Origin: a bacterium | Lineage (GTDB): Bacteria > UBA10199 > 2-02-FULL-50-16 > JAJFLM01 | NCBI GenBank assembly: GCA_965216315.1 | Contig: CBDCFN010000016.1 | Location: forward strand, 1,536,001-1,600,000 | Reading direction: 5' to 3' | DNA length: 64,000 nt | Part shown: positions 2,266-29,342 of the stretch, piece after piece | Layout: every line of letters begins with the position of its first letter | How positions within the stretch are numbered: position 1 is the first letter of the stretch | Position numbers and translations under genes: made by a program | The notes under the pieces: generated by a model | The model's database searches: none | Told to the model about the DNA's origin: nothing | The model's input: only the letters and a program-made list of their open reading frames with translations

Positions 2266-2292
2266 GCAACCTTTAGCCGCCGAGGCCGAAGA
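2266..2292 (+). promoter_or_regulatory. Putative alternative-sigma (sigma28-like) promoter, copy 1
   Basis: GCAAC-ctttagccgccgag-GCCGAAGA, 7 nt before ATG 2300; same motif and 14-nt spacing recur 7 times. Confidence 0.7.
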
Positions 2293-2299
2293 TGTTCCC

Positions 2300-3961
2300 A
2301 TGTCCACGGTCATGGGAACAACACCGTTTATGTCAGCCAGCTTGCTTGCAAGTAGCCGTTTTCCTCAAATCACCTCACAACTTGATCATATTCAGCACCG
2401 CCAGTTGGGCGACAGCTTCTTAGGGCAGCTCAGCGACGCCGATATTTTTATCGCTGACATTTCCTGTTTGCGAAATGATCAGTGGCTGCATCGCATGGAC
2501 ATGGCCGGGTCTCTCAGCACGATCGAGAGGATCCTTGGCGAATTTAAAGGAACGACCTCTCATTCTCACCTTGCGGTTGTTCGTGAAAACGAGGTCCCCT
2601 CACCGGTCGCCCAACGCATTGTCACTGCGCGACCCGCATTGAAATCAAGCAACCGCGAATTCCACATCGAGGGCTATTTTCAACCTTTCGCGACGCAGAC
2701 GCTCGATGCCAATCGGCTGCAACCCGTAAAGGGGCTCACTCGCGACTCGAAGCTGTCATTCTATCCCCCTCCCTATGTGCCTCTCAATACACAGGACGAA
2801 TACAAGATTCTGCAAATGCTCGAGTACGCCGGCATCCACTACGAAACTCCGCGTTGCGATGCCGCTCGTTACGGTGTCACTGCATTTGATGCGGGACGTC
2901 GCTTTGTCTTCAAGACAAACCTAGACTTCATTACCTTCGACTGGGATCACACGCTCAGCAATTACCAGATCTTTGAAGAAATTGCCCCCATCATTCGCGC
3001 CAAGCTTTCCAAGCAAGAGCCACCGGAGGCCTTGGCTGAACGCCCCATGACCGCCCTCGAAGTGGCGCGCCCTTTTATGCAGGAATTGGTATTGGGCATG
3101 ATGGTCGGTTATGCTTTTAGGCAAGGACTAACTAATTTCCAGCAATGGGAGCAATACAAGCCACAAGTCGGTATTGTCACTCATACTTGGCCTGACCGTT
3201 TGGGCGTGCTCGCTGAACACTTCGTCCGTTTGTTACCGCTGATGGAGGGATTACTACCCGGAACACCTGGCGTCTATAACTGGATGACACATTCCGATGT
3301 CCGTTCGATCACCCACCTGCATCACTTCTTAAGTTACGCCGAAAGTCTGCTCCGCAAATTCGAACATGTCGGCCTGGAAGGACTGACAGAAACCGAACAA
3401 GCGGAATTGATGGGCTACATGGAAGACGGCAAGGCCCATTATCGAAAACCCTTGGGGACCTTGGCCATGCGCGGTTGGGAATTTTCCAGTCTGCTTCATT
3501 TTGACGACTCAACCAAGGTCATCAATGACTTAGTCGAACACGTACACGCCGAAGCCATCCGCGGCCTTTGGGTGCGCCAACCGCATTCAAAAAAACTTGA
3601 TGTCGGTGAGCTCAATAAAATCGTGCTCTCCTCACTCTGGCGTTCACGAGAGGCGGCACGCCTACGCGCCGCACGCAACCTGATTCGCGCCGAAGAACAG
3701 GGGTTCACCCTGCCGTATGTGCTCAGTGCCATGCAGATGTTCAGCGTCACGCGCCAAACCGACCAGTTGGCCTATCGCGCGCCCCTGCCCGCCGGTACGG
3801 TTTTCCGGCTCCATGAAACCCCGACCACCGTCGGTGAGTACTGGCGTTACTATGTGAACCCCACCAATCGCCTCAAGCAGCAGGTGCGCGCCGTGCGCAA
3901 AGCGGCCGGCGGTCTGCGCGCACTGCGGCATCAATATAAAGAAATCCGAAAAAAACCCTAA
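2300..3961 (+). CDS. Divergent HAD-superfamily phosphatase-like protein with Ser/Thr-rich LLASS leader
   Basis: Motif I FITFDWDHT (DxDxT), motif II GIVT, motif III RKP, motif IV LLHFDD in order. Confidence 0.6.
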   Translation: MSTVMGTTPFMSASLLASSRFPQITSQLDHIQHRQLGDSFLGQLSDADIFIADISCLRNDQWLHRMDMAGSLSTIERILGEFKGTTSHSHLAVVRENEVPSPVAQRIVTARPALKSSNREFHIEGYFQPFATQTLDANRLQPVKGLTRDSKLSFYPPPYVPLNTQDEYKILQMLEYAGIHYETPRCDAARYGVTAFDAGRRFVFKTNLDFITFDWDHTLSNYQIFEEIAPIIRAKLSKQEPPEALAERPMTALEVARPFMQELVLGMMVGYAFRQGLTNFQQWEQYKPQVGIVTHTWPDRLGVLAEHFVRLLPLMEGLLPGTPGVYNWMTHSDVRSITHLHHFLSYAESLLRKFEHVGLEGLTETEQAELMGYMEDGKAHYRKPLGTLAMRGWEFSSLLHFDDSTKVINDLVEHVHAEAIRGLWVRQPHSKKLDVGELNKIVLSSLWRSREAARLRAARNLIRAEEQGFTLPYVLSAMQMFSVTRQTDQLAYRAPLPAGTVFRLHETPTTVGEYWRYYVNPTNRLKQQVRAVRKAAGGLRALRHQYKEIRKKP

Positions 3962-4019
3962 AAAACAGGTTTTTCGGCCCCATTTTTAACTTATCGCAAG
4001 AGAATTCCTCAGTTTTTAC

Positions 4020-4046
4020 GCAACATTAGCCCATTCAGCGCGAGAA
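4020..4046 (+). promoter_or_regulatory. Putative sigma28-like promoter, copy 2 (weaker downstream box)
   Basis: GCAAC-attagcccattcag-CGCGAGAA upstream of ATG 4099. Confidence 0.5.
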
Positions 4047-4057
4047 TGCCCTTAAGT

Positions 4058-4073
4058 GGAGTCATATGACTCC
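4058..4073. promoter_or_regulatory. Perfect 16-bp palindrome (operator or 5'UTR hairpin)
   Basis: GGAGTCATATGACTCC equals its own reverse complement. Confidence 0.6.
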
Positions 4074-4098
4074 GTAGTGGTGTAACTGAGGGAGATTT

Positions 4099-4923
4099 AT
4101 GGCATTTTTAGCGGCATCGACGATGACCAGTCAGTTGGGGCTCACCTCCGTCTTGGCGAGTTCAAATCTGACCAACAGCGCGCTTCCGGTCGCCGTTACG
4201 ACCGCCGCAGCCACCACAGTGGCGCCTGCCATTGCTTCAGCGCAACCCTTTACACCGCCACCGGATCCCGCACAGCGACCGAGTGCTGAAGACACGCCTC
4301 CGATCGATGAAATTTTTGGCGATGCCGCGAATAACGGTCTGGGCGACATTCCCGTAACAGAACTCAATAACCCGGATCAGACCTGGCCGATTCTTATCGC
4401 GGCGGCAAGCTTTAGCGTCCCGTTAACACGGCTCGCTCTCGGCGTCTTCCGCCCCCTCCTCCCCAAGTCCTGGAAGACCGCCGATCAATCACTGGCCGCT
4501 GAAGGAGCCCTGCACAGCGCCAATCATTTTGTCAGCCGTGTCGCTAATTCGACGGTCGGCAGCATCGCGGCGCATGCGCGCAACCTCGGAGCGGCCATCT
4601 ACGTGGGCCACTCGCTTTCACATGATGCGCTTCGTCTCTTCCCCGAACAATACTGGCCGGAACTTTTGATCGTCTTCGGGATCGGAACGAGCCTGATCAC
4701 CCGCTTTAGTGCCTGGCGCCGGGCGCGCAAACTCAAGAAGGCGGGCGTGCCGGCCGAAGAAATCGCCGCCATGCGACAGCATGCCCTCGGTTTCATGCCG
4801 AAACGCATGCCAAAACCCAAGCAACTGCAAGCATCAAGTAATACCGTCACGGAAACAGCGACGGATATCGAAGCAGCAACAGTTACAACAACAGATACGG
4901 AGCCACCTGAAGGAACAGCCTGA
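4099..4923 (+). CDS. Hypothetical membrane protein with VLASS leader; resembles the N-terminal part of the next gene
   Basis: SD GAGGGAG; Ala/Thr/Pro-rich N-terminus; hydrophobic segments; stop overlaps next start (TGATG). Confidence 0.7.
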   Translation: MAFLAASTMTSQLGLTSVLASSNLTNSALPVAVTTAAATTVAPAIASAQPFTPPPDPAQRPSAEDTPPIDEIFGDAANNGLGDIPVTELNNPDQTWPILIAAASFSVPLTRLALGVFRPLLPKSWKTADQSLAAEGALHSANHFVSRVANSTVGSIAAHARNLGAAIYVGHSLSHDALRLFPEQYWPELLIVFGIGTSLITRFSAWRRARKLKKAGVPAEEIAAMRQHALGFMPKRMPKPKQLQASSNTVTETATDIEAATVTTTDTEPPEGTA

Positions 4924-7550
4924 TGACACTGCCACTCGGGACGACGACAAACACACTGCTCACGTCTAACTTTCTCGGGCTTGCGGCCTCCGCACCGCTC
5001 TTAAACAATTCATTAACGGGTAACGCGCCGACCACTGACAATCAAACTCTGCTGGATGACAGCAGTGCTTATCAGGACCCCACCACATCCAGTCCGCTGA
5101 CCGAGACCTCACTGACTGCGGCCGCAGCGGTTTTCGGGCCCGAACCGCCCATCGCCGAAGTGAATCCGACAGCCACGATTGAAGAAGACCTTGAAAGCGC
5201 CGCCCGCACCAATCCGAGAGGATCATTGGCGTTATTGGCTGCCTTAGCGACCGTCACGACCCTCGCGGTTCCCGGCACGGCCTTTGCCCAAGACGGGGTC
5301 ATGGAAGCCTCCGGAACCAGTACCTACGACCCGACAACGCATCTGATCGTCTTGGCCGCCCTTTTTTCAATTCCCATCTTACGAGGAACCGTTCAGGTCG
5401 CACGTCAGGTATATCAATGGTTTAAAGAAACTTTCGGGGAAGCTCCGGTCTCTGCGCGTGCGCCCAAAACCGGTCCTCCGGCTGCGGAAGAAACCACCCC
5501 CGCCGAACCCTCTGAACAACCTGATTATCTCTATCCGCAGCCATTTGAAGCGATCAATCAGGTGACGGGCAAGGCCGAACGCGTTTTTTCTACCGTAAGA
5601 GATGCATCCATACCGCTAATGATTCAAAAAGACCTCTATTTTCCCCTCATCGGCGGTGCCTCGTTTTTCTTAACCGGCGGCTTTGATCGACCCTTGTGGG
5701 CCTTGGCCATCGATGCTTCAGCGATGGGACTGGCCTACCTCAATCGCTGGTATCAACTTCGCAAAGTTGACCGGCCGCTCATCGAAGCCGTCAAAGAAAA
5801 ACCTTTGACCTCGGATGCCTTCAAAAAACATTTGGAACGTCCACTCGGCGTCCTCGGACCACCCGTGCCGACGGTCGAAGAGTTTCATGAAGACGAATTT
5901 TTTCGCCTCAATAAGCGACTTTTTGATGGAGAACCGACACGCAGTCGTTTGAGAAGCTATTTCGCGCTTAAAGACATCCTCCAAGCCGCTTTTTTACTCG
6001 TAACTCAAATCAATGATCGAACCGGCTCGGCAACGCTCTTAAAAGAAATGTGGCGTTACGCGCTGAACTCGGAAATTTTACCGGCCGATGAAGATAATTT
6101 AGAGGCCGCACATGCCATTGCCCGCCAATGGGCCATCCAAAGTTCCGCCCGCATGCGCGCTAACCTCTCGTTTGATGGCATCGAACAGCTGACAACGATC
6201 CCCGAAGGCGCCCCCGTCATCATGATCGGAAATCACGATTCTTCAATGTGGCCTTCTTTTTGGGCGGCCTTTTTAATGCGACTCAGTGACGGACGTGACA
6301 TTCACGGTCGACCGATTGCAGACATCAGCAATTTTGCATTGGCACCCTGGATGCGTTTGAGTCCCTTATCAGTGCTCGGTATCGCCCTCCAGAAACTCGG
6401 CCTCATCTACGTCCCGCGCAAATCAAAACCCAAAAAGCGCAAACTATGGAAACGTATTCTAATTAATTGGAACCCGCTTCTTCTCCCGCTTAGGGGCCTC
6501 TACCACGGCGGGGTTTGGGCGCTCACCAGACTAGGGCTCCTTGAGAAGGCGCACTTCGATTGGCCTAAGGATCTCGTCGACAAGGCAAAGATGGGTATCT
6601 ATCCCTTAGGGTATCCGGCCGGCGGCCGTGAACCCGCCTGCTATAATGAAGCGGGCGAAGTGATTCAATCAAGCCCGCTGGCCAACGTCCTCAGCACCAA
6701 GAACCCCCATTATTTCATCGCCCGCGGTATTGCCGAGCAAGCCGTCGAAATTGCGAGCCAAAACGGCGGTCAAACCGTCTATGCTCCGTATATCTACACG
6801 AACGGCGCCTATCGCGTCGCCCACAAGCAGAAGAAAGGCTTTGGCGCCTTTGTTGAACCGATTACAACCGATCAGGACGTGAATTATAGCGTTCAAGGCA
6901 TTGATCAAGTTCAACCTAACGAATCGGCAGATGCCGTATCAACGCGTTGGGAGAAACTGTCTATCGAGGCGACGGGTACAGAACAGGTCCTGCAAGAACA
7001 GGTTCTCGACTGGCTCCAACGATATCGGCGCGACGATGCCCGCCGTCTGCATGATGTGTTTATCGCGCAGGCAAGCGGGCAAATGGCCGCACGTGACGCC
7101 TCCGTCGAAGCTGCCAAAGGCAACTATCCCATCCATTATCTCATTGCCGCACGCATTACCGCTATTCGACCGGGTCTTCCGAATAACGATCGTCGCGTCT
7201 TTCAAGATCGTTTCTTCGACCTGCTAAATAACCAAGTAGACCACAGCAAAATGCAGGAAATGATCGAACAACTGAATCATGCTAACTTGGAGCATCTCCT
7301 GATTACGCTCAATGACGAAGTCCTGCAAAATCATTTAGCTTACAGGGAAAGAATGCGCTTGCGCCGCTGGCTGGGTGAGATGAATAATCAAGATTCTCGA
7401 GAGGCCTTGTTGGCGGATGAATCACGTGCGACATTGCGTGAGATGATGAATTCATTCAACGCGCAAGCCTGTCACCGTTTTGCGTTACTGACGCTCTTGA
7501 GGGATATCTCGATTCGGGTCAAACAGGTTGAATATAAGGCCGCGGCGTAA
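4923..7550 (+). CDS. Large membrane protein with degenerate PlsC/LPLAT acyltransferase-like domain
   Basis: GIEQL...PVIMIGNHDSS (block I lacking the Asp), GLIYVPR, GYPAGGR (block III-like). Confidence 0.6.
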   Translation: MTLPLGTTTNTLLTSNFLGLAASAPLLNNSLTGNAPTTDNQTLLDDSSAYQDPTTSSPLTETSLTAAAAVFGPEPPIAEVNPTATIEEDLESAARTNPRGSLALLAALATVTTLAVPGTAFAQDGVMEASGTSTYDPTTHLIVLAALFSIPILRGTVQVARQVYQWFKETFGEAPVSARAPKTGPPAAEETTPAEPSEQPDYLYPQPFEAINQVTGKAERVFSTVRDASIPLMIQKDLYFPLIGGASFFLTGGFDRPLWALAIDASAMGLAYLNRWYQLRKVDRPLIEAVKEKPLTSDAFKKHLERPLGVLGPPVPTVEEFHEDEFFRLNKRLFDGEPTRSRLRSYFALKDILQAAFLLVTQINDRTGSATLLKEMWRYALNSEILPADEDNLEAAHAIARQWAIQSSARMRANLSFDGIEQLTTIPEGAPVIMIGNHDSSMWPSFWAAFLMRLSDGRDIHGRPIADISNFALAPWMRLSPLSVLGIALQKLGLIYVPRKSKPKKRKLWKRILINWNPLLLPLRGLYHGGVWALTRLGLLEKAHFDWPKDLVDKAKMGIYPLGYPAGGREPACYNEAGEVIQSSPLANVLSTKNPHYFIARGIAEQAVEIASQNGGQTVYAPYIYTNGAYRVAHKQKKGFGAFVEPITTDQDVNYSVQGIDQVQPNESADAVSTRWEKLSIEATGTEQVLQEQVLDWLQRYRRDDARRLHDVFIAQASGQMAARDASVEAAKGNYPIHYLIAARITAIRPGLPNNDRRVFQDRFFDLLNNQVDHSKMQEMIEQLNHANLEHLLITLNDEVLQNHLAYRERMRLRRWLGEMNNQDSREALLADESRATLREMMNSFNAQACHRFALLTLLRDISIRVKQVEYKAAA

Positions 7551-7590
7551 AATTGGCCTAATTTTTCGCAAATTTTCGCAAGGTCGCCGA

Positions 7591-7617
7591 GCAACTTTAT
7601 TCAGGGACTGCCGATGC
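7591..7617 (+). promoter_or_regulatory. Putative sigma28-like promoter, copy 3
   Basis: GCAAC-tttattcagggact-GCCGATGC, 11 nt before ATG 7629; preceded by tandem TTTTCGCAA x2. Confidence 0.7.
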
Positions 7618-7628
7618 TGCAGTGAATT

Positions 7629-9317
7629 ATGACCCTACTCGCCCTCAATCCAGCTCTGGCAACATCGCTGCTGGCCGCCGCAGCATCCGGTCCCGGACCG
7701 ACTGGCACTCAGCAACTCTCGCAGCATATCTTTCGCTTAGCCGCCCACCCGAACATTCGCGAGGTCCCGGCTGAGGCCCTGACCCAGATCCGCACTGGAG
7801 TACAAAGTGATGATAATTTAACGCTTAAGTACGTAGACCAACTGCAATCAAGTGCTGATCCCAGTGCAATCGCCCAGGCCTTGATTGAAATCGGGTCGCG
7901 GCAAAGCGCTGTCGGCAGGCTCGCAACAGCAAATCCTCCCGACTTATCGCAATTAGACATCCCGGAACGTCAACTTGAAACCGATTCGGAAATAACCCTG
8001 CAGGCTTGGCTTAGCAGTCTAACGGGGGGCCAAATCTCTGAGGAAGCCCTGACCCTGGGACAGCGCTGGGGGCGCTATGGTTACTTCCTCAGCGGGGCCG
8101 CCCATATGCTGGGCATACCCGCAGCGCTCATGACTGCAGCCACGGCACTGATTATGGGTGATCCCGTCGTCGGTGGTATTTCCGCCGGATTTCTTACGAC
8201 TTATCTAGCCAACTTTCTACAACGCTACCGACGTAGCAATATCATGCTGCAATCAACGGAACAGGGCCCCTTTACCCCCCGGCAAATCGAAGCGTATCTT
8301 AAAAGTTATCAATTATACCCCGGTGCGCTTCGTGAGCTCAGAGAGGCGTCCGCTCATCGCGATCAGGAATTGTTTGACGTCATCGCAGCCATTGAAGCCT
8401 CGGCAGGACCGAGGGGGCTTCAACCGACACTCAGTTCTAGAGCGTTTCTACAAGGGCTGTACAATTTTCTTAACATTTCGACGATTGGAAATCTAGGGCT
8501 CGCCCGCGATGCAAACGGTGATTACTACGATTTAGCCGCGCAGGCCATTGGACTTGGAGTCATGCAACGCTTGCAGTGGCAGCCGCTCGTCCTACACGGA
8601 GAACGCTTACAAGAACTCAAGGAATTGCAACGCAATAATCCGCGAGCTCGATTTGTTTTCGTCCCCAATCACCGCAGTCACTTGGATACCCTAGTGACGG
8701 TCTCACTCGTCCGAGATTTTCGCGCTCGTTTCGTCGCGAAAGACGCTCTGGGCAAGGCACCGGGGCTCGGCTGGTCACTTTTCCCGGAACCCTGGCATCC
8801 CTTGAAAAACAGCCTCATTCGAGGTCCAGGCAGCATGTTGATCCATCGCGGTGGAGAGGCCTCTCATCGGCATCTGACGGCGTTTGTCGGCGAAAAATTT
8901 GCGGCCCATGAATCCGTGGTCATCTTTCCGGAACAAACACGCCTTGATACGACGGACCGAAATGTCGAATTAGGCATGCGCCCTTATAGAGAAGGCATTT
9001 TTCACGCCGCCCATCATTGGACGAATATTGCCGACGAGACTTATGACATCTATTTTGTCCCGCTATCTTATTATGGAGTCGGTCGAATTTTTCCAAAAAG
9101 TAATGATAAGGCAAGTAGTGAAGGCGGTCTCATGAATCAACCCGTCGCCATGTCAATCGGCACGCCAATTCAAGCCCCCAAAAGAATCAATTCCTCCGGA
9201 GAAAGCGATAGAGACTACATCCACGCATTAAACCGGACAGTCTGGTGGCAACATTGGCAACAGCTTGCGGCACTCCAGTCCTTTATGAACCGCTACAGCC
9301 CCGCGATTTCAAGATAG
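7629..9317 (+). CDS. 1-acyl-sn-glycerol-3-phosphate acyltransferase (PlsC/LPLAT)-domain protein with long N-terminal extension
   Basis: NHRSHLD (HX4D), FVAKDAL, IHRG, IFPEQTR, PYREGIF; TM hairpin near aa 150-195. Confidence 0.85.
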   Translation: MTLLALNPALATSLLAAAASGPGPTGTQQLSQHIFRLAAHPNIREVPAEALTQIRTGVQSDDNLTLKYVDQLQSSADPSAIAQALIEIGSRQSAVGRLATANPPDLSQLDIPERQLETDSEITLQAWLSSLTGGQISEEALTLGQRWGRYGYFLSGAAHMLGIPAALMTAATALIMGDPVVGGISAGFLTTYLANFLQRYRRSNIMLQSTEQGPFTPRQIEAYLKSYQLYPGALRELREASAHRDQELFDVIAAIEASAGPRGLQPTLSSRAFLQGLYNFLNISTIGNLGLARDANGDYYDLAAQAIGLGVMQRLQWQPLVLHGERLQELKELQRNNPRARFVFVPNHRSHLDTLVTVSLVRDFRARFVAKDALGKAPGLGWSLFPEPWHPLKNSLIRGPGSMLIHRGGEASHRHLTAFVGEKFAAHESVVIFPEQTRLDTTDRNVELGMRPYREGIFHAAHHWTNIADETYDIYFVPLSYYGVGRIFPKSNDKASSEGGLMNQPVAMSIGTPIQAPKRINSSGESDRDYIHALNRTVWWQHWQQLAALQSFMNRYSPAISR

Positions 9318-9334
9318 GATCAAGTAGCCGAAAT

Positions 9335-11215
9335 CTAGGTCAACCCGGTATCGGCCTGACGTCCCGCTATTTTTTCCATCTCACGAATGATGGCTGAATT
9401 TAGCTGAAGAATATCGTAATTGGAACGATCGGGGAAATCCTCTGCTCTTATTAATGACTCCGGTGGCAAATAACCGGCAAGTGCCACAAAGCCATCTTCT
9501 TCACCAATTCGAGCCAGATGAAAATTATTATCAGAACTAAAGAAACCACCCAATGAACGAGGAATATCCTGAACGGGGACACCCCCACGGTGGAGGTTGT
9601 TGGCAAAGATATGGATGCCGGAATTAATATTCATGGCCAGCTTGGCATGCATTCCGGTCATGTCACGCGACGGGATATAGGCACCCGGCATATGAAGGGC
9701 ACCAGGATGATTGAGATCCATATAAGGTCCGACCAAGGGATACTCAATCGCCCGCGTTCCAGTCCCAAACATGGCCAACATCATCCCCTCTTTGACACGG
9801 GCCTCCATGGCCTCATAAACTTCGTTCATGATTCTTTCTCGCTCTTCGTCGTTCGCATCCTTAGGCGGACGCTTCAGATAAACGCCTCTCATGTGTAAAT
9901 ACCCTGCCATCGCCGGAATCGCCTTAAACGCCTCTTCTGCGAGAATTGAAGCCGGATTCATCCCCAACAGATAGAGACCACCGATAAGTCCGGCATAATC
10001 CATAGCACCGGTATGCGACCAATGAGAAATGCTTCCCTGACGAACGGTATTCTCCCCTTGAATAAAAGTAGAAAGTCCATCCATAAGTCCCGCCTCAATG
10101 GGACGATGATGTCCAAACAGAGGCGCATTCGCTCGATGCACGATGCGAAACGATCCATACTGCCAACTAAGCAGGTTAAGAGCGAATTGAGTTGCGGCAG
10201 CATAATCAAGGTCTTCCATCGGAAGTTTTCCTGCTTTGGCTTTTTTCACTAAGTCCCGGACGTTCCATACGATCTCTAGAAAGGGTTCCAATGCGGTCAT
10301 CCCATTAGGACCCTGATCAATGAGCTTGGCCTGCGTCTTGATATGAAATGTCAGGGGCGCCCCGAGGGCTTCAATGCCATTATGCCCTATCTTGCGATAA
10401 ATTTTCTGCACGGTCTGATGGAGATCCCGCAGGGCCACTAAGGCCTTTTCTTCCGTTTTCTTGCGCCGATTTTCGCGACAGCCGGGATCATCTTGGCTCA
10501 TGCGCCGATCATATTCGATATACTCCGACATGCTCGTTTCATAAGTACGAAGCGCTGCCTCAAACTTTTTTATCTGTCCCTTTGACGGCGATCGCGTCCC
10601 CTCCTCGGCAACCGCCATGAGATCGCGATAACCGGCAAGTTGCCAGCGAAGTTCCACTTCCTCCGCTTGAACGAGTAATTCCTTTTCTCGTTTCCAGCGA
10701 TCCCAAGCCCTATCCCCAATCCGCAAATTGCGTTCATGGAGATTGGCATCCTGGTAATTCCCCTCCCAGTCCTCAAGCATCTCGCGCCAAAGATCACGAC
10801 TGGCATCATTGATAGCAATCAACTCCTGCTTGGCGGCTTCATACGCTTGACGCCCTTTTGACGAGTGAAGTTCCATACGATTCCTCACCTGATCAGCTGC
10901 CCATGCCAGGCGATCCGAATGAAAGCTGGCATGAGATGAACGAAGAGCCTCCTCTTGGCCGGGAGATGGAAGCTGTTGATAATTAAACCGACTTGAAATG
11001 CGCTCTCGATCAAGAACATACAAAGACGTGCCCCGAGCTTCTACGAATGGCGTAATCCCCGCCAAGAAGCGCCGCGCAATATACCCCCCCATGCTATTGG
11101 AATTCTGACCTGCCCAGGTCTGGGCTTGAGGTGACATGGCGGTCAAGGGACCCGCACTCGAAGCCAAGAGTGCGGAACTTCCCATTGAAATTGTTGAAAA
11201 CGCTGAAAGTGTCAT
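9335..11215 (-). CDS. Divergent LPLAT-like acyltransferase with helical N-terminal region and LLASS leader
   Basis: WSHTGAMD (HX4D), GVYLKR, MFGTGTR (block III-like). Confidence 0.65.
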   Translation of the reverse strand: MTLSAFSTISMGSSALLASSAGPLTAMSPQAQTWAGQNSNSMGGYIARRFLAGITPFVEARGTSLYVLDRERISSRFNYQQLPSPGQEEALRSSHASFHSDRLAWAADQVRNRMELHSSKGRQAYEAAKQELIAINDASRDLWREMLEDWEGNYQDANLHERNLRIGDRAWDRWKREKELLVQAEEVELRWQLAGYRDLMAVAEEGTRSPSKGQIKKFEAALRTYETSMSEYIEYDRRMSQDDPGCRENRRKKTEEKALVALRDLHQTVQKIYRKIGHNGIEALGAPLTFHIKTQAKLIDQGPNGMTALEPFLEIVWNVRDLVKKAKAGKLPMEDLDYAAATQFALNLLSWQYGSFRIVHRANAPLFGHHRPIEAGLMDGLSTFIQGENTVRQGSISHWSHTGAMDYAGLIGGLYLLGMNPASILAEEAFKAIPAMAGYLHMRGVYLKRPPKDANDEERERIMNEVYEAMEARVKEGMMLAMFGTGTRAIEYPLVGPYMDLNHPGALHMPGAYIPSRDMTGMHAKLAMNINSGIHIFANNLHRGGVPVQDIPRSLGGFFSSDNNFHLARIGEEDGFVALAGYLPPESLIRAEDFPDRSNYDILQLNSAIIREMEKIAGRQADTGLT

Positions 11216-11300
11216 CTTACCTAACGATCATAATTATCTGGAATTACTGGATAATTTCTTATCCATCATGCACCATATAGGACGCAAGCGTCACGGCTGT

Positions 11301-11327
11301 TCTTCGGCCCTAGCGGGCTAAAGTTGT
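11301..11327 (-). promoter_or_regulatory. Putative sigma28-like promoter, copy 4
   Basis: Minus strand ACAAC-tttagcccgctagg-GCCGAAGA, close in sequence to copy 1. Confidence 0.7.
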
Positions 11328-11390
11328 GTTAAATTCCCGTGAAAATGACGCATTGCAAAACTCACGCTCGCTCCTTAAAAGAAGCTGCAG

Positions 11391-12629
11391 ATGTATATTC
11401 AAGCCGAGTGGATTATCCCGATCAGCGCCCCACCCATCCAGAATGGCTGGATCCGGGTCGAAAATGGCCTCATTATGGATATCGGGGAGGAATCTTCCCG
11501 CCCAACAACGCTCGATGAGCCCCTACAGAACCTGGGAGCGGTCGCCGTATTTCCCGGCCTCATCAATGCCCATTGTCACCTTGAATTTGGCCGCCAGGAC
11601 CATCCACGCGATTCTTTTGCCGCCTGGGCCCAGTCCGTTCAGCAGAGTCAGCAGCGAGATTCATTTGAGGAAATGACGGAACGTTGGAACCAGAACGTCA
11701 GGCGCTTGATCGCAACGGGGACGACGACGGTGGCAAATCATTGTAATCGAATGCCTGACATTGGACGGGTCCTGTCCTCTCGAAAAACTTTTGACCCGCG
11801 GCACGGCGGCCGCTCTCAAAAGTCTTCCTCGGGCCACCCGTCACAACTACCGCACATGATCCACATTTGCGAAATCGTCGGGAGTGATCCGACACGCGCG
11901 GCGGAATCTTATCGCAATACCTGCGCTCAACAACTCGAAATACTCAATGAGCAAGGCCAGGCCACAATATCTCCCACGAGTCTCTATGCGGTCGCGCCGC
12001 AAGTTCTCGAAGACTTCTTCAAAAATCGCGACCCTGATTCGTTAGTCTCCGTTCATCTCAAGGAGAGTCACGAGGAAAACGATCTATTCAAAGACAAGCG
12101 GGGCGCCCTCGCCCAGCTGGTGAAAGTCAAAGGCGGCGATCTTTGGCTGACAGACCCTATGACTTGGCTCCGGGAAAAAAATCGCCTTGGTCCCAGTACC
12201 TTGATTATACACGGTAATTACCTCAGCGATTCTGACGTCGGCACCTTGCAAGGGACCGGGGCCAGTGTTATACACTGCCCCGGCAGCCATGCTTATTTCG
12301 GGCATCAGCGCTTTCCCTTGGAGGCGCTTCAAAATAAGAACATCAATATTGCGCTCGGAACCGACAGTCTGGCCAGCAATGATGATCTGAGCATGCTTAA
12401 CGAATTGCGCCGCGTCCGGGATCAGTACTCTGGGCTCTCATTAGAAGAAATTGTTCGCATGGCAACGATCAATGGGGCTGAGGCACTCGGTATCGCTGAT
12501 GAGCGCGGGAGTATTGAAACGGGAAAAAGTGCCGACTTGATCGCAGTCCCGTGCTCGGTGGAAGATCCGTATGAAGCGCTCTTTAACGCGGAGACAACGA
12601 CGCTGACAATGATTGCAGGAACAGCATGA
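11391..12629 (+). CDS. Amidohydrolase family protein, probably aminodeoxyfutalosine deaminase-like
   Basis: PGLINAHCHLE, VHLKES, IHGNYL, HCPGSH, LGTDSLASN, GKSADL; first gene of a menaquinone operon. Confidence 0.8.
   Translation: MYIQAEWIIPISAPPIQNGWIRVENGLIMDIGEESSRPTTLDEPLQNLGAVAVFPGLINAHCHLEFGRQDHPRDSFAAWAQSVQQSQQRDSFEEMTERWNQNVRRLIATGTTTVANHCNRMPDIGRVLSSRKTFDPRHGGRSQKSSSGHPSQLPHMIHICEIVGSDPTRAAESYRNTCAQQLEILNEQGQATISPTSLYAVAPQVLEDFFKNRDPDSLVSVHLKESHEENDLFKDKRGALAQLVKVKGGDLWLTDPMTWLREKNRLGPSTLIIHGNYLSDSDVGTLQGTGASVIHCPGSHAYFGHQRFPLEALQNKNINIALGTDSLASNDDLSMLNELRRVRDQYSGLSLEEIVRMATINGAEALGIADERGSIETGKSADLIAVPCSVEDPYEALFNAETTTLTMIAGTA
11764..11842. repeat. Imperfect palindromic element in-frame within the amidohydrolase
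   Basis: Nested arms GACGGGT/ACCCGTC, ACTTTTGA/TCAAAAGT, GCGGC/GCCGC. Confidence 0.65.
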
Positions 12630-13312
12630 TGAGTGAAGATATTCAAAAAATGTTCAGCTCGATTGCCCCGCGTTATGACCGACTGAATCACGTCTTGTCA
12701 TTTCAAATCGATCGGCTCTGGCGCAAAGAGGCCATCGCCGAACTCAATCATTGCCACAATGTCCTCGACCTGTGTGCAGGAACATTGGACCTTTCCATCA
12801 TGCTCGCCAAGCAATCGCCTAAAGTTCATATCGATGCCGTCGATTTCTCGGCCGAAATGTTGCGCCACGGGGAACTAAAACTAGATGACACTATGCGTAC
12901 CCGCATTCGCACCTATTGTGCGGATATCCAAAAACTCCCGTTCAAAGACGACACGTACGATGGTGCGATGGTTGCCTACGGCATGCGCAATGTCGACGAC
13001 AACCAGCGCGCCTTGACCGAAATCCTTCGTGTTATCAAACCCGGCGGCAAACTTGTCGTTCTGGAATTTTTCAAACCCAATCGACTCGCGGCGCGAATCT
13101 TTCACGCGACGTATGGCCGCTTTGTCATTCCCTGCCTCGGCGGTCTTATCAGCGGCAACCGTCAGGCCTATCGCTACCTGCGTGATTCCATTCGCGGCTT
13201 TCACACGACCGAAGAGTACGAATCCTTGATGCAGCGCTGTGGGTTTCGTGAGGTTACCTTTCGCCATCAGTGGGGGGGAGCCAGCACCCTGTTTATGGGG
13301 AAAAAACCATGA
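12626..13312 (+). CDS. menG: Demethylmenaquinone methyltransferase (UbiE/MenG)
   Basis: MFSSIAPRYDRLNHVLS, VLDLCAGT, YGMRNV, KPGGKLVVLEF, YRYLRDSI. Confidence 0.92.
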   Translation: MMSEDIQKMFSSIAPRYDRLNHVLSFQIDRLWRKEAIAELNHCHNVLDLCAGTLDLSIMLAKQSPKVHIDAVDFSAEMLRHGELKLDDTMRTRIRTYCADIQKLPFKDDTYDGAMVAYGMRNVDDNQRALTEILRVIKPGGKLVVLEFFKPNRLAARIFHATYGRFVIPCLGGLISGNRQAYRYLRDSIRGFHTTEEYESLMQRCGFREVTFRHQWGGASTLFMGKKP

Positions 13313-15286: not shown

Positions 15287-15967
15287 CTAGGAATCGAAAG
15301 GTTGCAGCACACCCTGATAGTCCTGTCCATCCCAGTACCAATCTTCCGTCCGCATTAAACACACGTTTGATAATACCCGTGGCCTGATCACGCCGGCGCA
15401 TTCTCCTCCTGTATCTCTTACACTACTATAGACCACCCCATTATCACCACTATCCCTAAGTCCCGCTCCAAACCGCTGAGACTCACTGTAATCAAGCGAT
15501 CGATAATAGCGTGGATATTTCTTTTGCTGCTTACGAAGATCAACAAACTCACCGGCAATTTTCCCGCAAATAACAAGATACGAGATCTTCCCCGCACCGA
15601 TCCCATAATCTCTATTGGATACTGTATGATGATAGACTACTTCCTTGACCGAAGTTTTATAGTCTTTGCTCGCATAATAAACGCCCCAACTGTCATTAAA
15701 CCGACTGCCTGTCCCATCATAAGTATAATGGGCATAGGCTCCTGATATATAGACTGATGATTGAATACTTGTTAAGTCAGCCGCATCAAAGTAAGGGTAT
15801 CGGTTCAAAATTTGCTTGCGAAGATTAAAAGAGCTCTCCAGATCACGTACCGCTGTCTGTTTCCTTGAATCCATTTTTTTGTAGAGTCTGTCAAAAGCGG
15901 AGCGGTCGTACCTGGTCCTAATAAGGCGAAAGCAATTTTCCCAGTTCAGCTTGGTTTTTTTAGTCAA
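15287..15967 (-). CDS. RES-domain toxin (NAD+ phosphorylase, MbcT/ParT-like)
   Basis: GSRFN..GVYYAS (R), KEVVYH (E), GVVYSSVR (S). Confidence 0.85.
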   Translation of the reverse strand: MTKKTKLNWENCFRLIRTRYDRSAFDRLYKKMDSRKQTAVRDLESSFNLRKQILNRYPYFDAADLTSIQSSVYISGAYAHYTYDGTGSRFNDSWGVYYASKDYKTSVKEVVYHHTVSNRDYGIGAGKISYLVICGKIAGEFVDLRKQQKKYPRYYRSLDYSESQRFGAGLRDSGDNGVVYSSVRDTGGECAGVIRPRVLSNVCLMRTEDWYWDGQDYQGVLQPFDS

Positions 15968-15968
15968 C

Positions 15969-16382
15969 TTAAATACTCCGAGCGCCTTCGAAGTACCTTC
16001 TAACCTCCAACAGATCGGGAATTGATCTACGCATCTTCTCTAATACCGTCATGCCCTCAAAGATAGGCGCGCTTAGCCTTCTACGAACAAGTCTGTCTGC
16101 ATCTTCCTCATTGGGCACAAGAAGTTCTATGTTCTTAAAAATGCCTAGGATGTGAGATAAGCGTTCACGCTTATCTTTATCCAACTTCAAATTTTCATTG
16201 TTCTGCCAATTGTATAAATTAGCTTTCTGCCGTTCCTCCAGGCCCAGCAGATCAAGCTTTTCAGCCACTGTTAGTCCCCACAGCTTTGCAATCTCTGCAA
16301 AGGCCAACATGCCCGCAGTAGACTGCTCTTCAATGCTAGTCGTTGCCCCCGCATCACCTGGGGATTGGTATTCCGGCTGCAT
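15969..16382 (-). CDS. Xre/MbcA/ParS-type antitoxin
   Basis: WGLTVAEKLDLLG, ERLSHILGIFK, APIFEG...LLEVRRYF; SD GGAGG before ATG 16382; abuts the RES gene. Confidence 0.85.
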   Translation of the reverse strand: MQPEYQSPGDAGATTSIEEQSTAGMLAFAEIAKLWGLTVAEKLDLLGLEERQKANLYNWQNNENLKLDKDKRERLSHILGIFKNIELLVPNEEDADRLVRRRLSAPIFEGMTVLEKMRRSIPDLLEVRRYFEGARSI

Positions 16383-16430
16383 AGGACCTCCTGAATGTCT
16401 AATATTATAATATATTCTTAATATAGTATA

Positions 16431-16457
16431 ATATCGGAAAATATACCAGAAAGTTGT
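16431..16457 (-). promoter_or_regulatory. Putative sigma28-like promoter, copy 5
   Basis: Minus strand ACAAC-tttctggtatattt-TCCGATAT upstream of the antitoxin. Confidence 0.55.
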
Positions 16458-17848: not shown

Positions 17849-17864
17849 ATGAGAGGATGATATA

Positions 17865-17976: not shown

Positions 17977-17985
17977 GCCATCCCC

Positions 17986-27000: not shown

Positions 27001-27526
27001 GCGTTCCATCCCGCAGGATGAAGAATACTTAAAACGCTTCTTTGGCAAAGATATTGCTGAAGGTAAAATTGAATCTGTCTTCGACATCCGTGATGTCTGG
27101 CCCGAGAACTACAGTGCTAACAGCGCGCAAAAAGTCTGGTCCGTCAAATTTGCATCACGCCACCCCAATGTCGCGATCTTGGACCTATCCAGCTTTAAGT
27201 GCGGTCATGATGCGCCTACTTATGGCATCCATGACAAGATTGTTTCAACGAGCAACACTCCCTACTCCGCCCTGCATGATATTGATGCCAACAAACCGGG
27301 AGGCTCAATCAAAATCCGCGTCAAGACCTACACCCATTCGCTTTCGTTGCGTGAAGAGGTCCTCGATGACCTCACCAAGAAAAAACAGGAATTAGAGCGT
27401 CGGATTGCAGCCAAACGTTCAGAACTGCTTGGAAAGCAATCGTCTCCAACAACGACGGATGAAATCGTATTACCAATTTATCAAGCCGAAACCGAGGAGG
27501 AAAAATATGCAGCCTCAAACTTCTAG
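24011..27526 (+). CDS. Acyl-CoA dehydratase activase (two BadF/BadG/BcrA/BcrD ATPase domains + DUF2229-like domain)
   Basis: GVDVGSTT, ELGGQDAK, NDKCASGTG, GLDGGSTS, DIGGQDIK, CSAGNG, CHFCPNNC, FKCGHD. Confidence 0.9.
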   Translation: MAQKLMIGVDVGSTTVKATVVDPETLDILWSDYQRHETKQPEKVLEFLVRIGNEFNDVAQEDIRLFLTGSGSAPLCEPLGGKFVQEVNSVTLAVEKLHPDVGSVVELGGQDAKIIIFKENQETGEKQAITSMNDKCASGTGATIDKCMIKAGVDNDFSSKLVFNGDKLHHVAAKCGVFAETDIVNLVKSGIPSDEILNSLADAIVMQNLSVLTRGNTLRHKVLLLGGPNCYLPFLQECWRKRIPETWNERNYDYPKDVPIEDIIIVPENAQYYAAYGAVLYGTYEPAEAGVYKGLNELKNFINFGRKAKLGEQAGKPLVANEAELEAFKEDYTIPQFKPQVIEAGSVVKGYVGLDGGSTSSKAVLVDEAGEIILKAYQLSKGNPIQDTKEILKQMKDYITDQGATLEVLGFGATGYAADVLESSLKSDVNIVETVAHMMSAVHFFGDVDVICDIGGQDIKVLFMKNGDIKNFKLSNQCSAGNGMLLQAMADQFGIKVQDYADVAFGADLAPKFSYGCAVFLDSDRVNFQKEGFSKEELLSGLAQVLPKNVWQYVVQIPRMAELGRRFVLQGGTQYNLAAVKAQVDYIKERVPGAEVLVHPHCGEAGAIGAAMETRRVVQRRGYSTFVGLDSGIDLKYISRNDESTVCHFCPNNCSRTFIDTETPDGDTARYISGFSCEKGTVESKEEMVKLSKKRNELKKEFPNLVDYEAKALYRTYTKDPMPEDGDVYEDIKVKRGFFGLGNVKRIPYTRTFQRSSEAAWEKRKDIRIAIPRVLNIWSTAPMWRAYFESLGIPSKNVVWSDYTSEEMWTEGGKYGSIDPCYPSKVAQAHIHNILFHKHSDEKPINYLFFPILTHVESFMDHVVDTACCPIVSGAPEVMKAAFTKENDFFAERNMTYFDPALTMNEPTLFKKQMFEAFQPLLDMTEDESDFAVDQGWKALRTVDKDLQTRGREILDWAEKEGKMTLLMVGRPYHLDPGLNHEVLDEFQVRGYPVLSMRSIPQDEEYLKRFFGKDIAEGKIESVFDIRDVWPENYSANSAQKVWSVKFASRHPNVAILDLSSFKCGHDAPTYGIHDKIVSTSNTPYSALHDIDANKPGGSIKIRVKTYTHSLSLREEVLDDLTKKKQELERRIAAKRSELLGKQSSPTTTDEIVLPIYQAETEEEKYAASNF

Positions 27527-29159
27527 CAAACTGAAAGCGCAGCTTCCAGTTTACAATAGTAAGGGGGAAGAAAACTCTCTCCCCCCTTACAACCCCTCAT
27601 CGAATGCTCAGATAGAAGAGAAACTTGCACAATTTGAGCATGAAACACGTAAGGAACTTGGTCTTGATCTCGCTATCGACAAGGAACAGTGGAACGACAC
27701 GATCAACCGCGATTTCTTCGCGGACCAGCGAGAACACACCACGATTCTTGTTTCCGGGCTGACCATGGCCCACGATAATTTTGTCCAAGCGGGACTTGCG
27801 GGACTGGGTTACAAAATCAAAGCGCTGGATTGCCCTGACAATGAGGCCCTCCAGTTCGGAAAAGAATACGGCAACCGCGGGCAATGCAATCCAACCTATT
27901 TCACTGTCGGTAATCTGGTCAAATACCTATGTCAGTTACGTGATCAAGGGATGACCGAAAAAGAAATCATTGACTCACACGTTTTTCTTACCGCGGGCGC
28001 CTGTGGCCCGTGTCGCTTCGGCATGTATGTCACGGAATACCGCAAGGCCCTCAATGATGCCGGGTTTGAAGGTTTCCGCGTTATGCTCTTTGATGCCAAT
28101 GGAGGCATGTCGCAGGCAACCGGCCGTGAAGTTGGTCTCAAAATGGACCGCGCGTTCTTCCTGACCTTGGCCAAAGCCATCATTACAGGAGATGCCCTCA
28201 ACGCCATTATGTATCGCATTCGCCCCTACGAAGTTGTTGAAGGCAGCACTGATGAAGCGATTGAAGATTGCCGCGCCTATATTATGACGGCTCTCAAAGA
28301 GAAAAAATCACTTCTAAGAGCGCTCTGGCGCTGCCGCAAACGCTTACAACAAATTGAAGTCGATCGAACGATGGTAAAGCCTAAAGTCAGTATTATTGGT
28401 GAATTCTGGGCCATGACAACGGAAGGTGAAGGCAACTATCGTCTCCAACGTTTCTTGGAACAAGAAGGAGCCGAGGTCGATATCCAACTCATCGTCGGTT
28501 GGATCCTCTACAACCTGTGGCAAGCGCGCGTCGACACACGTCAACGCATGCGGCTCCGCCATGCCGACATGGACGCTCGCAAGGGACTCAAAACAACACA
28601 AGTCGCCAAAAAATTCCTGCTCTTGAATGTAGCGGAATGGGTCCTCAAAGGAACGTTTTACACTATCGGTAAGATCCTTGGGCTCAAGAACTATCATTTG
28701 CCCAACATGGAAGAAAATGCAGAGCTTGCCTCTGAGCACTACAATAATGAACTGCGCGGCGGTGAGGGCCACATGGAAGTCGGCAAACTTATCCAAACGG
28801 TCATCCATGACAAGGCCCACATGGTTATCTCCGTGAAACCATTTGGGTGCATGCCCTCTTCCGGCGTCTCGGACGGCGTCCAAAGCATCATTACGGAAAG
28901 GTATCCGGAGGCCATCTTCCTCCCGATCGAAACTTCGGGTGATGGCGCAGTAAACGTTTACAGTCGGATTCAGATGATGCTCTTTAAAGCGAAACGAGCT
29001 GCAGAATTGGAATATGAAAACCTGCTCAAAAAGAAAGGGCTCACTCTTGAGAAAGTGAAGGCGAAGATTGCGCGCAGTCGCCGCTTGAGTAAAACGACTC
29101 ACTACGCACCCCATAAGGCAGCGGGTACCGCCGCTAACTTCCTGCACGAAGCGGCCTAA
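27507..29159 (+). CDS. 2-hydroxyacyl-CoA dehydratase-like partner protein
   Basis: GQCNPTYF, GACGPCRFGMY, GGEGHMEVG, KPFGCMPS; SD GAGGAGG before ATG 27507. Confidence 0.85.
   Translation: MQPQTSSKLKAQLPVYNSKGEENSLPPYNPSSNAQIEEKLAQFEHETRKELGLDLAIDKEQWNDTINRDFFADQREHTTILVSGLTMAHDNFVQAGLAGLGYKIKALDCPDNEALQFGKEYGNRGQCNPTYFTVGNLVKYLCQLRDQGMTEKEIIDSHVFLTAGACGPCRFGMYVTEYRKALNDAGFEGFRVMLFDANGGMSQATGREVGLKMDRAFFLTLAKAIITGDALNAIMYRIRPYEVVEGSTDEAIEDCRAYIMTALKEKKSLLRALWRCRKRLQQIEVDRTMVKPKVSIIGEFWAMTTEGEGNYRLQRFLEQEGAEVDIQLIVGWILYNLWQARVDTRQRMRLRHADMDARKGLKTTQVAKKFLLLNVAEWVLKGTFYTIGKILGLKNYHLPNMEENAELASEHYNNELRGGEGHMEVGKLIQTVIHDKAHMVISVKPFGCMPSSGVSDGVQSIITERYPEAIFLPIETSGDGAVNVYSRIQMMLFKAKRAAELEYENLLKKKGLTLEKVKAKIARSRRLSKTTHYAPHKAAGTAANFLHEAA
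27560..27602. repeat. REP-like hairpin element, intragenic in-frame copy
   Basis: TAAGGGGGAAGAAAACTCTCTCCCCCCTTACAACCCCTCATCG encodes KGEENSLPPYNPSS. Confidence 0.7.
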
Positions 29160-29248
29160 ATCCCCCTTAGTCCCCCTTTACAAAGGGGGAGATAGCGGTA
29201 TCCACTTGGTGTCCCTCCCTTTTGCAAAGGGAGGCCAGGAGGGATTTA
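29157..29248. repeat. Inverted doublet of REP-like elements
   Basis: TAAATCCCCCTTAGTCCCCCTTTACAAAGGGGGAG, and on the minus strand TAAATCCCTCCTGGCCTCCCTTTGCAAAAGGGAGGG. Confidence 0.75.
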
Positions 29249-29315
29249 AGCTGCAGCTATAATCCTTTATTTTTCAGTGGGTTAGCCCACCCATTTTAGA
29301 GCAACCGCTCTAAGC

Positions 29316-29342
29316 GCAACTTTTCAGCTCAACGGACGAATA
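29316..29342 (+). promoter_or_regulatory. Putative sigma28-like promoter, copy 7
   Basis: GCAAC-ttttcagctcaacg-GACGAATA upstream of the hybrid kinase. Confidence 0.6.

Follow-up and report, generated by a model that had tools for sequence, protein, structure and literature searches.

The DNA analysed here, which we call the window, is a 64-kb stretch from a bacterium of the UBA10199 lineage (contig CBDCFN010000016.1, positions 1,536,001 to 1,600,000; G000:C16:1536001-1600000 in our numbering of a 2.96 Mb genome in 16 contigs). It carries repeated copies of a short bipartite motif, RCAAC followed at a fixed distance by CGA. A preliminary description of this DNA had listed seven intergenic copies, each pointing into a gene, as the mark of a candidate alternative-sigma regulon. 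All seven were reproduced at their positions and on their strands (2266+, 4020+, 7591+, 11327-, 16457-, 21266+ and 29316+), and an open reading frame (ORF) was confirmed downstream of 7/7. Below we describe these predicted promoters and the genes behind them, the extent of the motif in the genome and its relatives, and the sigma factor that may read it. Scores in bits given for promoters and motif sites are those of a weight matrix trained on 96 motif matches with a start codon within 120 nt, its spacer columns set to zero.

The first predicted promoter (2266..2292, + strand) consists of the -35 element GCAACCTT, an 11-nt gap (N11) and the -10 element GCCGAAGA, and scores 23.4 bits. Its predicted transcription start (+1), 2300, falls on the first base of the ATG of a 553-residue gene (2300..3961, +), and the mRNA would be leaderless. 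The product starts MSTVMGTTPFMSASLLASS, an uncharged N-terminus made of Ser, Thr, Leu and Ala, and has no Pfam family. The second promoter (4020..4046, +; GCAACATT-N11-GCGCGAGA; 17.2 bits) has a predicted leader of ~45 nt with the ribosome site GAGGGAG and precedes a two-gene unit (4099..7550, +). This unit encodes proteins of 274 (MAFLAASTMTSQLGLTSVLASS) and 875 residues (MTLPLGTTTNTLLTSNFLGLAAS), both with an uncharged N-terminus and no Pfam family. At the third (7591..7617, +; GCAACTTT-N11-GCCGATGC; 22.2 bits) the predicted +1, 7625, lies 4 nt before the ATG at 7629 of a 562-residue gene (7629..9317, +), whose product starts MTLLALNPALATSLLAAAAS and contains a PlsC-type acyltransferase at residues 336-481 (PF01553, 45.8 bits). 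The fourth, on the minus strand (11301..11327; ACAACTTT-N11-GCCGAAGA; 21.8 bits), has a predicted leader of ~78 nt and faces a 626-residue gene (9335..11215, -), whose product starts MTLSAFSTISMGSSALLASS and gives a weak acyltransferase match (17.9 bits, below cut-off). In 4923-11215 the neighbouring 875-, 562- and 626-residue proteins each contain, or look like, a PlsC-type acyltransferase core that follows the shared N-terminus; the trio could form a small local family of lipid-modifying cargo.

The fifth promoter (16431..16457, -; ACAACTTT-N11-TCCGATAT; 19.9 bits) precedes a unit at 15287..16382 (-) that encodes an Xre-like antitoxin (137 residues, ATG at 16382) and then a RES-domain toxin (226 residues). 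At the sixth (21266..21292, +; GCAACCTT-N11-ACCGAAAA; 23.1 bits) the predicted +1, 21300, lies 2 nt before the ATG at 21302 of a 443-residue gene (21302..22633, +); the product starts MLSIASTTTMSLHAVPLLAAN and has no Pfam family. The seventh (29316..29342, +; GCAACTTT-N11-GACGAATA; 20.1 bits) faces a gene for a hybrid PAS histidine kinase with a receiver domain (29362..31680, +; 772 residues when read from TTG 29362, its start being uncertain). Four of the seven first-line products in the window are without a Pfam family. Taking the seven sites in order, the A of CGA stands 11, 56, 15, 89, 52, 13 and 23 nt from the start codon, and the four sites other than 2266, 7591 and 21266 have predicted leaders of about 12-78 nt.

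A pattern scan of both strands with RCAACNTT-N13-CGA gave 8 matches in the window. Dinucleotide-preserving shuffles of the window (n=100) gave a mean of 0.45 (sd 0.59, largest 2), and 0/100 reached 8. The earlier rough estimate of 0.25 chance hits was of the right order. The eighth match (12837..12863, -; pattern part 12840-12863; 16.0 bits) lies antisense in a methyltransferase gene (12626-13312), outside the upstream zone; no ORF lies downstream of 12863(-), and the match is probably due to chance. The seven sites of the preliminary description stood, and one copy in the window had been missed. Its scale was too small, as ~100-230 promoters are predicted genome-wide and the class is conserved throughout an uncultured lineage of phylum rank.

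In the whole genome (2.96 Mb) the pattern matches 118 times, compared with 10 for the reversed pattern. Each element contributes to this number. Replacing the -10 triplet reduced the 118 matches of CGA to 8-17 for eight other triplets; inner gaps of 11, 12, 14 and 15 nt gave 18, 16, 23 and 8 matches compared with 118 for 13 nt; and eight other -35 pentamers, TAAAG among them, gave 9-28 compared with 118 for RCAAC. TAAAG and TCAAG at the -35 place gave 9 matches each, which is background in this genome. Since the single-element variants set a background of ~8-28, roughly 100 of the 118 matches are in excess of chance.

We examined how these matches are placed relative to genes, using gene calls from a home-made dicodon model (2550 genes, 92.5% coding), with start codons picked by reference to the motif. 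By these crude calls intergenic DNA makes up 7.5% of the genome, and 79/118 matches were mostly intergenic, 74 of these 79 with a same-strand start within 300 nt. The other 39 appeared intragenic; 26 of them have an in-frame alternative start just downstream, indicating that the gene caller had over-extended those ORFs. This leaves 13/118 that are truly intragenic and 5/118 that are intergenic and lack an ORF. The latter, without a same-strand ORF within 300 nt (G000:C15:456855(+) and C16:255028(+), 889729(+), 968459(-) and 1802957(-)), may be promoters that serve small RNAs or genes missed by the caller. Frequency inside genes and in the wrong orientation had been named beforehand as a check on the motif; ~100/118 matches lie just upstream of a same-strand gene, and the reversed pattern reaches 10.

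The weight matrix led to a similar picture. At 14 bits or more it found 230 sites genome-wide, of which 183 lie in the same-strand upstream zone, which comprises 12% of strand positions, compared with 27.6 expected; at 20 bits or more, 90/99 sites lie in this zone. Training on upstream sites tilts these placement figures slightly in favour of the matrix and leaves the strict-pattern counts unaffected. The matrix was kept fixed because iterative refinement drifted (406 to 927 hits over four rounds) and was dropped. Of the 230 sites 191 could be tied to a gene and form the target set used below; out of about 2550 genes, no more than about 190-230 have the motif.

The bases that the pattern leaves free are themselves biased: after CGA they are T (75), A (67) and A (74 of 118), and before it G (49) and C (58). 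The extended -10 element, gcCGATAA (GCCGATAA), is in its letters the sigma-28 consensus. The consensus of the class is (a/c)RCAACTTT, an 11-nt gap and gcCGATAA. The gap between the two octamers is fixed, as gaps 1-2 nt shorter or longer give 8-23 matches compared with 118. At the -35 place the class has RCAACTTT and not the TAAAG(TTT) or TCTAAAG of sigma-28 promoters. The sigma-28-like geometry with a CAAC-type -35 that had been noted earlier is thus borne out, with a longer -10 and a rigid spacing.

In the fliC promoter of Pseudomonas aeruginosa the octamer GCCGATAA extends from -15 to -8, its A at -11 being the base that is flipped (PMC12784957). Transferred to the motif, this register sets the predicted +1 at 11 nt beyond the CGA adenine. 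Start codons most often stand at this same spacing from the adenine, with a sharp peak at 11 nt (20 genes), so the modal position of the ATG coincides with the predicted +1. Distances of 9-14 nt were found for 68/191 targets, 58 of which start with ATG, and 118/191 have a purine at offset 11. With the start codon at the predicted +1, the mRNAs of these 68 are predicted to be leaderless or nearly so, and we think it likely, on predicted starts, that about a third of the motif-driven mRNAs are leaderless. Together, the composition, spacing and placement of the motif mark it almost certainly as a class of promoter.

Promoters of the sigma-28 class call for a matching sigma factor. Five genes of the sigma-70 family were found in the genome: RpoD (591 residues, assigned by size), RpoH (317 bits on rpoH_proteo), two extracytoplasmic function (ECF) sigma factors (G000:C16:1659626 and 2109922) and a sole FliA/WhiG-like factor (G000:C16:350511-351410) of about 275-299 residues. 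The last covers positions 1-222 of the 224-position TIGR02479 model and has a group 3 build (regions 2, 3 and 4). Its closest relatives of solved structure in the PDB are WhiG and then FliA of P. aeruginosa, Escherichia coli and Aquifex. Its public homologues come only from metagenomes and metagenome-assembled genomes, where they are automatically named 'FliA' or 'sigma-70 family'. A FliA-like sigma had been proposed in the preliminary description; exactly one candidate of this type was found, and it lies inside a cluster for a non-flagellar type III secretion system (T3SS).

The preliminary description had also pointed to region 4.2 of the sigma-28-family gene, and here we found an invariant change in the helix that reads the -35 element. 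An alignment of 21 T3SS-linked sigmas and five flagellar FliA proteins of relatives shows the helix LSKSW(T/V)SRLH in 21/21 of the former and (I/V)(T/S)E(S/A)R(V/I)SQ(I/V)(H/R) in 5/5 of the latter; P. aeruginosa FliA has VSESRVSQLH. In P. aeruginosa FliA, S224 and Q228 make base-specific contacts to the -35 element, R80 and D87 read -12G and -13C, and an aromatic residue at 76 stacks on -11A (PMC12784957). When our alignment is mapped onto this published numbering, a mapping of our own, the position of Q228 has changed from Gln to Arg and the adjacent Arg to Trp, and the Ser of S224 is kept, in 21/21 T3SS-linked sigmas. The residues that read the -10 element are conserved in 21/21 orthologues (R115, D122 and F111 for R80, D87 and the aromatic residue at 76). 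Retention of the -10 readers together with an altered region 4.2 helix fits a promoter with a kept -10 and a changed -35. The motif is very probably read by this T3SS-linked sigma-28 paralogue.

The cluster around the sigma gene encodes, before it, FHIPEP, an FHA/YscD-like protein, TPR proteins and a YscJ-type lipoprotein (sctJ-like), and after it a conserved 162-residue protein, a weakly FliG_C-like protein, FliH/SctL, the ATPase (sctN), YscO and a FliK/HpaP-like protein; it ends with FliM/N-like proteins followed by FliO, FliP and FliQ. On the hrcV equivalog SctV reaches 806 bits (cut-off 692), and it falls short of the cut-off of the FlhA equivalog. SctU is encoded elsewhere in the genome (357.1 bits compared with a cut-off of 358), SctR is above its subfamily cut-off, and SctJ, at 115 bits, is below 162. 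Thus the non-flagellar T3SS components SctV, SctU, SctR, SctJ, SctN, SctL, SctO and SctQ are present without flagellin or rod, neither of which was found in this genome (completeness 98.3%).

Two secretin-like proteins were considered as the outer part of this machine and rejected. The only large secretin of the genome is not SctC; it is the GspD of a complete-looking type II set (GspC, D, E and F; G000:C16:972801-978867) that stands beside a histidine kinase. A secretin-like protein of 253 residues is an orphan among housekeeping genes, beside tRNA synthetase genes. Likewise, the 162-residue protein whose gene overlaps the stop codon of the sigma gene (G000:C16:351407-351892; L008:11407-11892), with orthologues of ~160-180 residues in 15 relatives, was considered as an anti-sigma factor and set aside; its last 55 residues show a weak similarity to MxiI, the inner-rod protein of Shigella (E 0.042), and it is more like an inner-rod SctI/MxiI. 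The sigma gene may thus be co-transcribed with that of an early T3SS substrate. As no secretin, needle or translocon of a T3SS was recognised, the machine may be closer to the 'needleless' T3SS* of Myxococcus than to an injectisome.

We compared the genome with 40 relatives (41 genomes of one class and 20 families). The motif was enriched over the reversed control in 41/41. An orthologue of the sigma factor (52-81% identity) and FHIPEP were likewise present in 41/41, often on the same contig and 10-18 kb apart. In a phylum-wide set of 93 genomes (24 families, one class) the sigma was found in 89/93 and in 62/63 of the high-quality genomes. Flagellin was found in 5/41 genomes. These five also have a further FHIPEP, which scores higher, and a canonical FliA above the TIGR02479 cut-off (209-231 bits, compared with 122-150 for the T3SS-linked orthologues), which sits beside flagellar FlhA; the sub-threshold paralogue is present in them too. 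At the flagellin-family loci of these five, 8/17 carry tcAAGTTT-N12/13-CCGT(y) by eye and 0/17 the GCAAC type. A genome-wide count of the flagellar-type YMAAGTTT-N12-CCGT was uninformative (0-8 per genome compared with 0-10 in the control). Where both paralogues occur there are thus two related and distinct promoter types, differing by AAG or AAC at the -35 and by CGT or CGA at the -10; the genome of the window retains the T3SS-linked sigma alone.

The predicted products of the targets share a peculiar start. The first 18 residues lack Asp, Glu, Lys and Arg in 99/191 targets compared with 174/2550 of all genes, and the first charged residue stands at a median of position 20 in targets and 4 in all genes. 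These 99 proteins, which we call the signal class, are rich in Ser, Thr and Leu at positions 5-10 and in Leu, Ala and Ser at 14-21. A loose motif of the type LLA(S/A)S, often near residues 14-20, occurs in 51/99 compared with 185/2550. Several of the other targets have such a segment after an internal Met, which makes 99 a lower bound. Once the first 40 residues were removed, the 99 proteins fell into 81 BLAST clusters, 71 of them singletons, indicating that the shared N-terminus is not due to paralogy. Over the best 10-residue stretch the median hydropathy is 1.58, compared with 2.82 in a crude Sec-like set, and 76/99 have no predicted membrane helix; the uncharged start is thus neither a Sec signal nor a membrane anchor. 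Distances to the start codon are 9-14 nt for 52/99 and longer for 46/99, several of these with ribosome sites, and the N-terminal bias is therefore not tied to leaderless mRNAs. Inc-like bilobed hydrophobic domains were considered and discarded (1/99 compared with 84/2550). A search for an ATP/ADP translocase, a marker of intracellular life, gave no match; it was uninformative, as the control genomes gave no match either.

To describe what follows the shared start, we scanned 100 of the 191 targets, namely the best-scoring 60 of the 99 signal-class proteins and the best-scoring 40 of the other 92, excluding window genes and proteins longer than 1100 residues. No Pfam family was found for 41/60 and 27/40, respectively (68/100). 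Families seen in the signal class are a cupin dioxygenase, GGDEF, three LamG, two AMP-binding enzymes, RtcB, HAD, a malic-enzyme-like protein, GNAT, a lipid kinase of the DAG-kinase type, TPR, HEAT, two PAS kinases, a methyltransferase, a class V aminotransferase and FHA. The enzymes sit behind an N-terminal extension, RtcB for example beginning at residue 36. The other 40 include a subtilase, an SLT transglycosylase, a phage-type lysozyme, two DEAD-box helicases and a glutamate dehydrogenase. The preliminary description had not seen the motif ahead of the housekeeping genes it considered and had supposed a non-flagellar gene set. Both points hold, as no ribosomal or other core operon is among the scanned targets, which are mostly lineage-specific orphans and enzymes, in a genome without flagellin or rod.

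We suspect that the uncharged start is a tag. Signals for type III secretion classically lack acidic residues and are rich in Ser and Thr. The shared N-terminus is probably a modular export signal; that it is one for the T3SS has, in our judgement, slightly better than an even chance, a reading that we infer from the location of the sigma gene among T3SS genes.

These observations can be combined as follows. The motif would be read by the only sigma-28-family factor of the genome, a paralogue of flagellar FliA encoded in a non-flagellar T3SS cluster. Its altered region 4.2 helix would explain the shift of the -35 from TAAAG to GCAAC, and it keeps the residues that read the CCGA core of the -10. 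The promoter would drive roughly 100-230 transcription units, the seven of the window included; about a third of the transcripts would be leaderless with the AUG at the predicted +1, and about half of the products have unrelated bodies behind an uncharged start of 20-40 residues rich in Ser, Thr, Leu and Ala. This start would act as a modular signal for export, with the linked T3SS as the likeliest route. The account as a whole, a T3SS-linked sigma-28 paralogue driving a motif regulon of export-tagged products, seems to us a probable one. A stronger version, in which throughout an uncultured lineage of phylum rank with small genomes (89/93 searched) a duplicated flagellar sigma with changed -35 specificity is the dedicated switch of a flagellum-derived and possibly needleless T3SS, and an often leaderless promoter plus an N-terminal tag define at least 100 secreted effectors per genome, is put forward tentatively, as a proposal that may well fail.

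Several observations weigh against this account. Promoter activity, the +1 positions, the assignment of the sigma factor, secretion of the products and the biological trigger are all inferred. TIGR02479 is the best family of the sigma factor, at 133 bits, and this is below the curated cut-off of 189.6. No FlgM-like anti-sigma factor is evident, since PF04316 gave no match in the genome at E up to 1. The core T3SS operons are nearly motif-free: three hits of 19 bits or more lie in 320-372 kb, none before the core sct operons, and these precede an M23 peptidase (19.1 bits) and, after sctT, two genes of unknown kind. A T3SS secretin could not be identified in the genome, nor a needle or translocon family in the cluster, although small needle proteins could be missed, and export out of the cell is therefore not assured. 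Among the targets, 92/191 lack the uncharged start, some of them having classic Sec or lipoprotein signals. Both features of the class also vary by lineage. A spacing of 9-14 nt was found for 6/13 sites in the relative G004, 3/12 in G010, 1/6 in G003 and ~2/20 in G023, and the first charged residue came at position 15 or beyond for 6/12 in G010, 2/13 in G004 and 0/6 in G003. In the distant G023, neither a leaderless nor an N-terminal pattern stood out clearly among the first 20 sites by coordinate, taken with a crude ORF rule.

Some of these points favour a reading in which promoter and sigma hold, and the shared N-terminus serves another export route, targeting to a compartment or the envelope, or stability, or reflects a constraint of leaderless translation. 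The missing secretin and needle speak for it. So does the nature of some carriers, which are ordinary bacterial enzymes and signalling proteins typical of the cytoplasm (histidine kinases and other sensor kinases, GGDEF, the aminotransferase, the malic-enzyme-like protein). Moreover, the 52/99 carriers on predicted leaderless mRNAs would suit a translational constraint, and the more distant of the sampled relatives show no evident LLASS-type motif. A constraint of leaderless translation would not explain the 46/99 carriers with leaders longer than 14 nt, however; the hydropathy is too low for a Sec or membrane route; no twin-arginine motif or lipobox occurs in the signal class; and no secretion machine other than the T3SS has a genetic link to the sigma factor. 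We regard this alternative as somewhat unlikely.

It is very unlikely, in turn, that the motif belongs to one of the two ECF sigmas. ECF promoters usually have AAC in the -35 element and a CG-containing -10, of the CGT type, about 16 nt further on. GCAAC-N16-CGA has this geometry (AAC, 16 nt, CG), and the presence of two ECF genes lends the idea some weight. The full -10, however, is GCCGATAA, and CGT in its place gives 8 matches compared with 118 for CGA. Relatives of the two ECF factors (E up to 1e-15) were found in 10/41 (ECF1) and 15/41 genomes (ECF2), whereas the motif is in all 41; G004, G012, G031 and G040, for example, have 95-134 motif matches and neither ECF sigma. Neither ECF gene has a motif of at least 10 bits in its upstream region, giving no sign of the autoregulation that is usual for ECF sigmas.

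That the motif is a form of RpoD or RpoH promoter, a bipartite regulator site or a dispersed repeat is most improbable: RpoD and RpoH are universal, so that co-occurrence does not tell against them, but the motif matches no RpoD or RpoH consensus known to us, it stands before about 190-230 of about 2550 genes, ribosomal and core genes are not among the targets and 68/100 of those sampled have no Pfam family, TTGACA-N16-18-TATAAT-like sites exist separately and are enriched in the upstream zone (36/120, for 12% of positions), and strict orientation, rigid spacing and the fixed 11-nt distance to the start fit a promoter rather than an operator or repeat.

The proposed regulon of the T3SS-linked sigma can be set beside known systems. 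With the class 3 promoters of canonical FliA (TAAAGTTT-N11-GCCGATAA) it shares the -10 octamer, the 11-nt gap, the sigma family and the residues that read the -10, and it differs from them by a GCAAC -35, a changed region 4.2, no flagellar targets, no FlgM and a sigma below the TIGR02479 cut-off. FliA of Bdellovibrio bacteriovorus has been proposed as a global attack-phase regulator, with TTAAG-N16-CCGATA at 92/140 mapped attack-phase promoters (Karunker et al. 2013, PMC3627812). Here too a sigma-28-type motif stands over a large, mostly non-flagellar and uncharacterised gene set in a small-genome former deltaproteobacterium. Bdellovibrio, however, is flagellated and uses its single FliA for flagella as well, whereas our genome has no flagella and no canonical FliA and instead has a paralogue in a T3SS cluster, a GCAAC -35, many predicted leaderless mRNAs and a shared N-terminal tag.

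HrpL, which belongs to the hrp T3SS of Pseudomonas syringae and Erwinia, is an ECF sigma described as marking effectors genome-wide through the hrp box (PMC3879358). As with HrpL, an alternative sigma is encoded with a T3SS and uses one motif, and promoter plus N-terminal signal list candidate effectors. HrpL differs in being an ECF factor of group 4 with another box and in also driving structural T3SS operons, whereas here the sigma is of the sigma-28 family (group 3), the core sct operons are motif-free and only candidate effectors are marked. The sigma-28 of Chlamydia trachomatis bound only two promoters by ChIP-seq, those of hctB and tsp (PMC12282069). That organism likewise keeps a sigma-28 factor without flagella, beside a non-flagellar T3SS and for non-motility genes; two targets there contrast with more than 100 candidate promoters and a changed -35 here.

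In Myxococcus xanthus the 'needleless' T3SS* is reported to act in contact-dependent predation, its effectors being unknown (PMC12075869). Judged by description, our lineage resembles it in having a T3SS-like export apparatus with a sorting platform but no secretin, needle or translocon in evidence, and in being a former deltaproteobacterium. A dedicated sigma and regulon would distinguish our lineage, and none was seen described for the T3SS* in that source (PMC12075869). Predation by the present lineage is pure conjecture. Mostly in titles and the openings of abstracts, we found no description of a sigma-28 factor governing a non-flagellar T3SS; judged by title and abstract opening, no paper that mentions UBA10199 deals with its secretion system or sigma factors. 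What we propose would be a sigma-28 regulon with a logic like that of HrpL.

Were the account true, one short motif would list ~100-230 genes per genome that are switched on with a T3SS, most of them without a known family. It would also supply a clean natural example of a duplicated sigma that gained a private promoter by two base changes (AAG to AAC and CGT to CGA) and a change of helix, with five relatives that still hold the flagellar copy for comparison. Sigma-28, leaderless mRNAs and a candidate export tag would become linked, which bears on what a T3SS without a secretin exports. If, further, the tagged products are effectors, the lineage would live by contact with host or prey cells, and the motif would give the first readable effector catalogue for such a secretion machine.

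Minor observations concern the surroundings of the sigma gene and single targets. In six relatives a motif of 20.7-26.6 bits lies ~120 nt upstream of the sigma gene and faces away from it (L025 8421(-), L026 9878(-), L027 631(-), L029 9550(-), L035 5710(-) and L037 2621(-)); at the corresponding place the genome of the window has only a 9.5-bit site. The stretch behind this divergent motif has no conserved ORF and no Rfam match in the relatives. It contains the conserved blocks AAGTGCACAAGTGGTGC ... GGGGACTTT in L027 and L029, and looser ones in L025 and L026, and the divergent transcript may be a small RNA dependent on the sigma. In the window, the Xre/RES toxin-antitoxin pair behind the motif (15287-16457, -) would put such a module in the same predicted regulon as the export-tagged proteins. 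Elsewhere in the genome, two TIGR02147-like genes (near C16:98708 and 105057) carry a motif promoter, and a run of promoters of 24.6-27.6 bits with the lead-in cgaattttcc (G000:C16:2164728-2205964) precedes paralogues starting MGCDLYGASNLEG and other orphans.

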